Shown here piece by piece: positions 35,766-36,926 of a DNA stretch of 64,000 bases. Under the pieces are notes generated by a model, which was given only the letters and a program-made list of their open reading frames with translations, had not been told where the DNA came from and searched no databases. Origin of the DNA: Escherichia coli (GTDB taxonomy: Bacteria > Pseudomonadota > Gammaproteobacteria > Enterobacterales > Enterobacteriaceae). Both the position numbers and the translations under genes were made by a program. The DNA lies in NCBI RefSeq assembly GCF_003334315.1, contig NZ_QOWR01000023.1. One strand, 5' to 3'. Numbering within the stretch: position 1 is the stretch's first letter; each line of letters opens with the position of its first letter.

Positions 35766-36068
35766 AACTGTAACCTTCGAATTATGGAGTCAGAGACAAT
35801 CTCAGACACGAATGTCTGTAATCATACCATCACATCCGAATCCCTTCAGCCCTTTACATAGAGGTGCAAGGATGCTAATTGCAACAAACTAGTTTGGGTT
35901 TTAGCTAGTCCTTCATGGCGGATGTTGGTTTTGCATGTGAATAGTGCTTTAGTATCAATATTCCGATGTATGATAAATAACGGAAGCATTTGAATGGATA
36001 ATATACAGTATACATTCTATTAATATTTATGATATAATTCTTTTTTTATATTAATGGTCTTATTAGTA

Positions 36069-36926
36069 ATGAAATCATCCACCACAATTATCACTGCATA
36101 TTTTGACATTGGTAGAGGGGATTGGACTGCTAATAAAGGGTTCCGTGAAAAACTAGCTCGTTCAGTTGATGTTTATTTTAGTTACTTTGAGCGTCTGGCC
36201 GCACTTGAAAATGAGATGATTATTTTCACTTCTCCCGATTTGAAACCAAGGGTTGAAGCGATTCGCAACGGAAAACCAACAACGGTTATCGTTATCGATA
36301 TAAAAAAGAAATTTAGATATATCAGAAGTCGTATCGAAAAAATTCAAAAAGATGAGTCGTTTACAAATAGACTTGAGCCTCGACAATTAAAAAACCCAGA
36401 GTACTGGTCACCAGAGTATGTTTTGGTATGTAACCTTAAGGCCTATTTTGTAAATAAAGCTATCAACATGGGTTTAGTGAAAACGCCTCTTGTTGCGTGG
36501 ATAGATTTTGGCTATTGCCGTAAGCCAAATGTAACTCGAGGATTGAAAATTTGGGATTTCCCATTTGATGAAAATAAGATGCATCTTTTCACTATAAAAA
36601 AAGGGCTTACTGTTACATCTCAACAACAGGCTTTTGATTTCATGATTGGCAATCATGTATATATTATTGGGGGCGCAATTGTTGGTTCACAGCATAAATG
36701 GAAAGAATTCTATAAATTAGTTCTGGAAAGTCAAAAAATAACACTAAACAATAACATTGTGGACGATGACCAGGGCATTTTTGTCATGTGCTATTACAAA
36801 CGCCCCGATCTCTTCAACCTAAACTATCTGGGGAGAGGAAAATGGTTCGATTTGTTTCGCTGCTTCAGGAGTAACACTTTAGGGGCAAAAATGCAGGCGC
36901 TGAGAATTTTCCTTTCAAGAAAATAG
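36069..36926 (+). CDS. htrL: HtrL/YibB-family protein of unknown function
   Basis: ORF track 36054..36926; start may be M1 or M6 (MKSSTTIITAYFDIGRGDW); AT-rich; sits between hldD and kbl. Confidence 0.8.
   Translation: MKSSTTIITAYFDIGRGDWTANKGFREKLARSVDVYFSYFERLAALENEMIIFTSPDLKPRVEAIRNGKPTTVIVIDIKKKFRYIRSRIEKIQKDESFTNRLEPRQLKNPEYWSPEYVLVCNLKAYFVNKAINMGLVKTPLVAWIDFGYCRKPNVTRGLKIWDFPFDENKMHLFTIKKGLTVTSQQQAFDFMIGNHVYIIGGAIVGSQHKWKEFYKLVLESQKITLNNNIVDDDQGIFVMCYYKRPDLFNLNYLGRGKWFDLFRCFRSNTLGAKMQALRIFLSRK

Follow-up and report, generated by a model that had tools for sequence, protein, structure and literature searches.

htrL, an AT-rich presence/absence gene beside the Escherichia coli lipopolysaccharide core locus and a candidate core glycosyltransferase

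What does the product of htrL (yibB), an AT-rich gene located between hldD and kbl beside the lipopolysaccharide (LPS) core operon of Escherichia coli, do in the cell? We examined this question in a stretch of 64,000 nucleotides from contig NZ_QOWR01000023.1 (NCBI RefSeq assembly GCF_003334315.1), which is referred to in full as the window. htrL is a known E. coli gene of a known, named family and the founding member of Pfam PF09612; what is new here is its presence/absence polymorphism with an empty site, its complete association with the R3 core type, a GT-A (glycosyltransferase A) fold with conserved residues, and a partnership of the family with Caps_synth genes. On balance, and with moderate confidence, we favor the reading that the htrL product, a member of the WlaTC/HtrL family, is a soluble glycosyltransferase that has a GT-A fold, resides in the cytoplasm, and acts on lipid A-core. 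An LPS-associated role, which the original prediction had suggested from the position of the gene, is supported by the predicted fold and by context, namely relatives in LPS and lipooligosaccharide (LOS) core clusters and the R3 association, although it is unproven.

Family membership and predicted fold of HtrL

HtrL matched the Pfam model PF09612 (HtrL_YibB) across all of its positions (1-267 of 267) with an E-value of 3.6e-128, and it exceeded the cutoffs of both NCBIfam NF008462 (550 bits; cutoff 342) and TIGR02192 (436 bits; cutoff 265). The product had initially been described as lacking an assigned function, which holds for the E. coli protein and does not hold for its family, since many relatives are already named "WlaTC/HtrL family glycosyltransferase" by NCBI. 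An AlphaFold2 model was built from an alignment of 64 diverse homologues and reached a predicted local distance difference test (pLDDT) score of 95.3 and a predicted template modeling (pTM) score of 0.92. Structure prediction had been proposed as a check for a carbohydrate-active fold, and such a fold, that of a GT-A glycosyltransferase, was obtained. The model formed one Rossmann-like alpha/beta/alpha domain, which could be superimposed on GT-A enzymes of solved structure, with a helical insert between strands 3 and 4 (residues 78-133). The structure-match figures were 11.9 for BoGT6a, 11.4 for PBCV-1 A64R, 11.0 for LARGE1, 10.8 for both UGGT and the ABO transferase, and 10.2 for both LgtC and glycogenin, while sugar nucleotidyltransferases matched from 9.9 down with shorter alignments. 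The best fold matches belonged to the retaining families GT6, GT8, and GT24.

Foldseek recovered the same superfamily for the model with TM-scores of just 0.40-0.46. At the sequence level, a phmmer search of the Protein Data Bank (PDB) with HtrL returned nothing below an E-value of 0.35, the Pfam search of HtrL gave no Glyco_transf_8 match, and an hhalign comparison of the 64-sequence HtrL alignment with the GT8 protein WaaI of the window gave a probability of 0.5%. Because the TM-scores were modest and no profile similarity to WaaI was detected, HtrL is, as modeled, a remote and separate GT-A family.

We assessed residue conservation among 224 aligned family members. The positions conserved at 94-100%, every one of which is kept in the HtrL of the window, were T9, D13, R16, R31, Y36, F40, N48, E111, Y117, K124, W144, D146, F147, G148, Y149, G201, and the cluster D232-D233-D234-Q235. 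In the model, D146 directly follows strand 141-145, which is the usual place of the DxD motif of GT-A enzymes. Because HtrL was found to contain no hydrophobic segment (maximum Kyte-Doolittle hydropathy KD19 of 1.28), a cytoplasmic enzyme fits the protein. In the mechanism that we propose, a nucleotide sugar would be bound through the loop after strand 1 (T9, D13, and R16) together with the invariant Asp146, and the lipid A-core oligosaccharide, while still on the cytoplasmic side of the inner membrane and not yet exported, would receive one side-branch sugar. The anomeric configuration would probably be retained, and the D232-D233-D234-Q235 cluster would likely take part in the transfer. The gene itself would act as an accessory cassette that is divergent from hldD-waaFC and has its own sigma-70 promoter, its own terminator, and an H-NS-associated AT-rich spacer. 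What the analysis shows directly is the ORF and its composition, the family to which it belongs, its predicted fold and conservation, its gene neighborhoods, and its distribution in the population; catalysis, donor sugar, acceptor, retention, and cellular location are all properties of HtrL that we infer.

Distribution, gene neighborhoods, and the htrL segment

The distribution of htrL was counted in 5425 complete E. coli genomes, and these counts ignore phylogeny. The gene was present in 1957 of them (36%) and absent from 64%. The R3 core type was defined by waaD together with the R3 waaL, and in these R3 genomes htrL was scored as a contiguous waaL...htrL block. It was noted that all R3 genomes carried htrL (1364/1364), compared to 451/1032 genomes with a K-12-type core (44%), 139/1832 with an R1 core (8%), and, by subtraction, at most 3 of about 1200 genomes with R2 and R4 cores. 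R3 alleles fell into two identity classes (at least 99%, and 95-99%), and htrL was encountered in both. The gene is not limited to R3, and outer-core type was rejected as the full determinant of its presence, as complete K-12-type and R1 loci were each found with and without it. Physical linkage could explain the association of htrL with R3, the gene being only ~3.3 kb from the R3-specific block.

We then examined the neighborhoods of HtrL relatives in 65 loci obtained from scans at one genome per species. Most of these loci contained glycosyltransferase or other cell-surface polysaccharide genes in the fetched flanks, often as immediate neighbors. In Providencia the order was hldD-waaF-waaC-htrL, all in one direction, while in Buttiauxella htrL was located within the waaQ operon, flanked by two GT8 genes. 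The Acinetobacter gene was found in the ilvE-aspS outer-core locus with GT25, GT2, and Caps_synth genes, a locus in which htrL is also described elsewhere (PMC4172580), and the Campylobacter gene adjoined waaF. The nearest relatives outside E. coli, which shared 46-51% identity, were located in core-LPS operons.

A transferase gene of the Caps_synth type (PF05704) stood directly beside htrL in ~16 loci, with pairs in Moraxella, Acinetobacter, Pasteurellaceae, Campylobacter, Leptotrichia, and Anaerobiospirillum (loci considered: L006, L025, L028-L030, L032-L034, L036, L041, L044, L053, L056, L068, L072, L075, and L076). Fusion proteins of HtrL and Caps_synth domains were found in both domain orders (P0124 and P0127). 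This two-gene module recurs across Proteobacteria, Fusobacteria, and Campylobacterota, and the E. coli htrL has no such partner. Two further observations were made on the breadth of the family. A second HtrL lineage, of ~60% identity, was encountered in Salmonella, several Citrobacter species, and one record labeled E. coli, as a solo gene near icd-rluE-mnmA-purB (L003 8001-8975; L004 8001-8858; L016-L021). In the AlphaFold database (AFDB), HtrL-fold proteins were seen in Caenorhabditis, Haemonchus, filariae, Biomphalaria, Lymnaea, and a viral metagenome, some of them fused to other domains, and papers on C. elegans mention an htrl gene with PF09612.

The features of the locus are collected in Table 1. 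Both parts of the initial description of the locus, that htrL is more AT-rich than its neighbors and that it is placed between hldD and kbl, were borne out. Its GC content was 0.371 (0.353 at third codon positions), compared to 0.509 in hldD and 0.539 in kbl, with the window as a whole at 0.494, and the GC profile placed the low-GC stretch at about 35850-37100. This AT-richness is shared within the window, where ~11% of equal-length windows were as AT-rich or more so. The waaI-waaL block is such a low-GC region, and htrL thus resembles the variable polysaccharide genes in composition.

Table 1. Coordinates of htrL, its predicted signals, and neighboring features in the window
Feature	Position	Strand	Basis or remark
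htrL/yibB coding sequence	36069-36926	+	RefSeq start; 285 aa; annotated "protein YibB"
htrL longer open reading frame (ORF) variant	36054-36926	+	In-frame ATG at 36054, 15 nt upstream of the RefSeq start; 290 aa; uninterrupted in the ORF list
Putative sigma-70 promoter, TATACA-18-TATAAT, with TG	36009-36038	+	Upstream of htrL; consensus scan
Intrinsic-terminator-like hairpin, then T run	36970-37001	+	Downstream of htrL; scan
AT-rich presence/absence segment, ~1.28 kb	35814-37096		Carries htrL with promoter and terminator; alignment with empty-site genome
hldD/rfaD	34833-35765	-	Left flank; ORF and RefSeq annotation of matching genomes
kbl (glycine C-acetyltransferase)	37201-38397	+	Right flank; ORF and RefSeq annotation of matching genomes
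R3-type outer-core genes waaI, waaY, waaJ, waaD (+) and waaL (-)	27611-32784	+ and -	Low-GC block, GC 0.31-0.37
waaH/yibD	39671-40705		2.7 kb from htrL

The window is chromosomal DNA whose waa region was 100% identical to that of strain CP53 and other E. coli, and the R3 outer-core block was 99-100% identical to O157:H7 and other R3 genomes. We found that an empty-site genome (L002) was exactly identical to the window up to position 35813 and again from 37097. In htrL- genomes, ~62 bp stand in place of the segment, and the empty allele aligned weakly to 35814-~35880. The alignment of the window with the empty site contained no direct repeats flanking the segment, and htrL gave no PHROG match that would have indicated a phage origin. 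Two properties expected of a horizontally acquired genomic islet, atypical GC content and presence/absence polymorphism with a clean empty site, were observed for this segment; no mobility signature (integrase, tRNA, phage genes, or direct repeats at the flanks) was found. The order hldD-htrL-kbl was also found in Citrobacter amalonaticus, Atlantibacter hermannii, Cedecea neteri, and Enterobacter sp. Ap-916, and the same-site orthologues had an identical gene length and a GC content of 0.37-0.40. A recent insertion with target duplication was therefore rejected, there being no flanking direct repeat and the synteny and low GC being common to other genera. The shared synteny and low GC in Citrobacter, Atlantibacter, and Cedecea, together with the lack of repeats, point to htrL as an old resident that would have been lost, or swapped for the empty allele, in many E. 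coli lineages.

Selection on the gene was assessed through orthologues. Between the E. coli htrL and those of C. amalonaticus and Atlantibacter, the proportion of nonsynonymous differences (pN) was 0.11-0.17 and that of synonymous differences (pS) was 0.73-0.79, whereas pN in the same comparison was 0.015-0.048 for hldD, waaF, and kbl. From these values, htrL is clearly under purifying selection, yet it evolves several times faster than its neighbors. The ORF was intact in all four E. coli alleles read, which differed at 0-3 amino acids. The K-12 allele (L001 12370-13227) differed from the window by R151H, N169S, and A188V. R151H was considered as a sign of decay and rejected, as position 151 is Arg in 89% of the family and His is the second most common residue there.

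Transcription signals were also examined. A genomic SELEX (systematic evolution of ligands by exponential enrichment) table gives the same promoter hexamer pair for htrL and places an H-NS mark on the htrL/hldD spacer (PMC3946193). The RNA of the terminator-like hairpin had a predicted folding energy of -18.6 kcal/mol (z -5.6), and none of 200 shuffled sequences folded as well. With its own putative promoter and terminator, htrL is, by these predictions, a self-contained unit. No Rfam RNA family was found in the htrL spacers, where the lone match was a sub-threshold chance hit to a small nucleolar RNA model. Upstream of htrL, an RfaH ops element was looked for by eye; a GGCGGATG string was seen, and the GGCGGTAG core was not. 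The latter motif is the core of the ops consensus.

The left flank, hldD, is the first gene of the hldD-waaF-waaC(-waaL) operon and is divergent from htrL. In the sequence upstream of hldD (window 35766-35880), htrL+ and htrL- haplotypes were observed to differ beginning only 48 bp ahead of the hldD start codon, and the hldD-waaFC promoter region therefore differs between htrL+ and htrL- genomes. Apart from an IS5 insertion sequence (IS) within the hldD-htrL spacer (window 35766-36068; L077 556-1536), strain CP53 matched the window at 100% identity. In other htrL+ genomes, IS1, IS5, ISKpn26, or IS3 elements occurred at some point between waaL and htrL, and the AT-rich hldD-htrL spacer may be an IS target. 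It was also noted that waaC (window 32781-33773) encodes 330 aa here (R3), compared to a length of 319 aa in loci of the K-12 type and of 323-326 aa in the two R1 loci read. The 3' end of waaC, with its 4-nt overlap with waaL, seems to be part of the core-type-specific block. On the other side, two further envelope-glycan genes, waaH (GT2) and yibQ, which encodes a divergent polysaccharide deacetylase, followed beyond kbl-tdh in all genomes examined. The GC content of waaH was uneven along the gene (0.35-0.56).

A candidate reaction and competing explanations

A 2019 preprint (10.1101/536201), with reference to Kaniuk et al. 2004, describes the R3 core as having two N-acetylglucosamine (GlcNAc) residues, of which the one on heptose III (HepIII) is added by the plasmid-borne WabB and the one on the outer-core galactose "by an unknown protein". 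The sole uncharacterized glycosyltransferase-like gene found to be physically tied to the R3 locus was htrL. As a tentative proposal, HtrL may be the uridine diphosphate (UDP)-GlcNAc:(galactosyl)LPS alpha-1,3-N-acetylglucosaminyltransferase that adds the GlcNAc side branch to the outer core in O157:H7 and the other strains of the R3 type. It is a candidate because its fold resembles the retaining families, as an alpha linkage from UDP-alpha-GlcNAc requires, and because htrL occurs in every R3 genome compared to 44% of K-12-type, 8% of R1, and ~0% of R2/R4 genomes. The Buttiauxella arrangement adds to this, since the two GT8 genes around htrL there build the HexII-HexIII backbone (hexoses II and III), as does the presence of htrL in R3-like loci of Citrobacter, Enterobacter, Atlantibacter, and Cedecea. 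Outside E. coli, htrL is usual in R3-like loci. Those of Citrobacter sp. R56, C. freundii M-21, Enterobacter sp. Ag1, and Atlantibacter came to light via htrL itself and are a biased sample; the loci of Cedecea neteri and Enterobacter sp. Ap-916, which contained htrL, came from WaaL. Several points argue against this proposal. In Silvania, the hldD-kbl site of an R3-like locus had no htrL, linkage would suffice as an alternative, and the copies in K-12 and R1 strains call for an explanation. Were HtrL the R3 GlcNAc enzyme, those K-12-type and R1 copies would either hitch-hike or act on a different acceptor.

The annotation of waaD touches the same proposal. RefSeq/PGAP labels waaD (window 30398-31540) as "lipopolysaccharide N-acetylglucosaminyltransferase". 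In the 2004 work of Kaniuk and colleagues, WaaD is reported to be an alpha-1,2-glucosyltransferase. The database label may mask the unassigned state of the real R3 GlcNAc transferase.

A number of observations weigh against a lipid A-core glycosyltransferase. To our knowledge, each sugar in the K-12 core already has an enzyme other than HtrL assigned to it. The K-12 and R1 cores do not need htrL, because complete loci of both types occur without the gene, which is dispensable there. The family is not specific to LPS, as members were found in polysaccharide clusters of monoderm Bacilli, Clostridia, and Mycoplasma metagenome-assembled genomes, and also in Bifidobacterium, nematodes, and molluscs. 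The second lineage, the ~60% identical paralogue of Salmonella and Citrobacter, stands alone near icd, outside any LPS cluster. The canonical DxD motif is degenerate in HtrL, reading W-I-D146-F-G with the second Asp missing; GT-A enzymes lacking a DxD exist, BoGT6a being metal-independent according to its PDB title. Finally, the searchable literature contained no biochemical or LPS-structural data and no LPS phenotype for E. coli HtrL, and the passing mentions of htrL that were found there (a table from a silkworm-virulence screen, a gene association with urinary-tract infection, and a mutation cluster under antibiotic selection) were uninformative.

Some of these same observations would be expected if HtrL were a real glycosyltransferase whose E. 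coli acceptor is another envelope glycan or a protein, for instance enterobacterial common antigen, O-antigen or capsule intermediates, or osmoregulated glucans. The occurrence of the family in LPS-less organisms and, among Bacilli and Clostridia, in polysaccharide clusters of a generic kind, the solitary icd-linked paralogue of Salmonella and Citrobacter, the ability of K-12 and R1 cores to do without htrL, and the placement of the E. coli gene outside the waa operons with its own promoter and terminator all agree with such an acceptor. We nonetheless consider it unlikely, given that the closest relatives outside E. coli (46-51% identity) lie inside core-LPS operons, that htrL co-occurs perfectly with one core type, and that it always adjoins hldD-waaFC in Escherichia, Citrobacter, Cedecea, and Atlantibacter. 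A use of the GT-A-like fold for other chemistry, with HtrL as a sugar-phosphate nucleotidyltransferase or as a phospho-sugar or phospho-alcohol transferase that provides or attaches a non-sugar substituent, appears improbable; nucleotidyltransferases did match the model, with lower figures and shorter alignments than the GT-A enzymes.

The E. coli htrL could alternatively be a hitch-hiking relic, kept by linkage, largely silenced by H-NS, and making no measurable contribution, with the original "high-temperature requirement" phenotype arising from disturbance of the divergent hldD promoter region. The gene is missing from 64% of genomes without known consequence, the ~3.3 kb to the variable core block is a distance over which linkage alone could yield the R3 association, and the spacer bears the H-NS mark (PMC3946193). 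The haplotype difference that sets in 48 bp ahead of hldD and the IS elements inserted in the region in several strains agree with this as well. The state of the gene itself speaks for function, as the four alleles read were intact with 0-3 amino-acid differences, the catalytic-site-like residues were all kept, and same-site orthologues in other genera were under strong purifying selection with saturated synonymous divergence. Furthermore, 0/1364 R3 genomes had lost htrL, though the gene and the K-12 and R1 loci have been parted by recombination or deletion. From this examination we regard a relic as rather unlikely, and the lipid A-core glycosyltransferase remains the reading that we favor.

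Significance and comparison with known systems

htrL is a long-annotated gene that represents a widespread GT-A family extending from bacteria to nematodes and molluscs. If HtrL is the R3 GlcNAc enzyme, the genetic account of the R3 core would be complete, a 20-year-old gap would be closed, and the family would gain its first defined reaction. In one survey, the R3 core was recorded in 30/42 strains positive for the locus of enterocyte effacement (LEE), and the sugar is relevant to recognition, as DC-SIGN is among the host lectins for which core GlcNAc has been discussed as a ligand (PMC8715443). If htrL is inert in E. coli, it would be an ordinary low-GC accessory gene. The presence or absence of htrL provides a simple additional marker for waa-locus haplotypes.

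Among known systems, HtrL is matched over its full length by the WlaTC/HtrL family, including WlaTC of Campylobacter jejuni 81116 and HtrL of Acinetobacter baumannii OCL5, whose relatives are located in LOS/LPS core loci. The E. coli htrL differs in that it stands alone, without the Caps_synth-type (WlaTB-like) partner of many relatives. In the accessible literature we found no published report of in vitro activity for any member of the family, and Acinetobacter authors still class the function of HtrL as unknown. The only genetic evidence that we traced for the family comes from wlaTC mutants of C. jejuni 81116, which are described as deficient in LOS metabolism (PMC3841222).

We also compared HtrL with the retaining GT-A enzymes of families GT6 (BoGT6a and human ABO), GT8 (LgtC, glycogenin, and the WaaI and WaaJ of the window), and GT24 (UGGT). 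It shares only 9-15% identity with them and is distinguished by its helical insert and by a single Asp in place of DxD. A parallel in gene arrangement is provided by WaaH/YibD and the plasmid-borne WabB. WaaH belongs to GT2 and was found in all genomes examined, whereas htrL belongs to a different family, occurs in 36% of genomes, and has no residue assigned to it. Like htrL, the genes for WaaH and WabB are single genes outside the waaQ operon, and their products add non-essential side-branch core sugars, glucuronic acid (GlcUA) on HepIII for WaaH and GlcNAc on HepIII in R3 for WabB.
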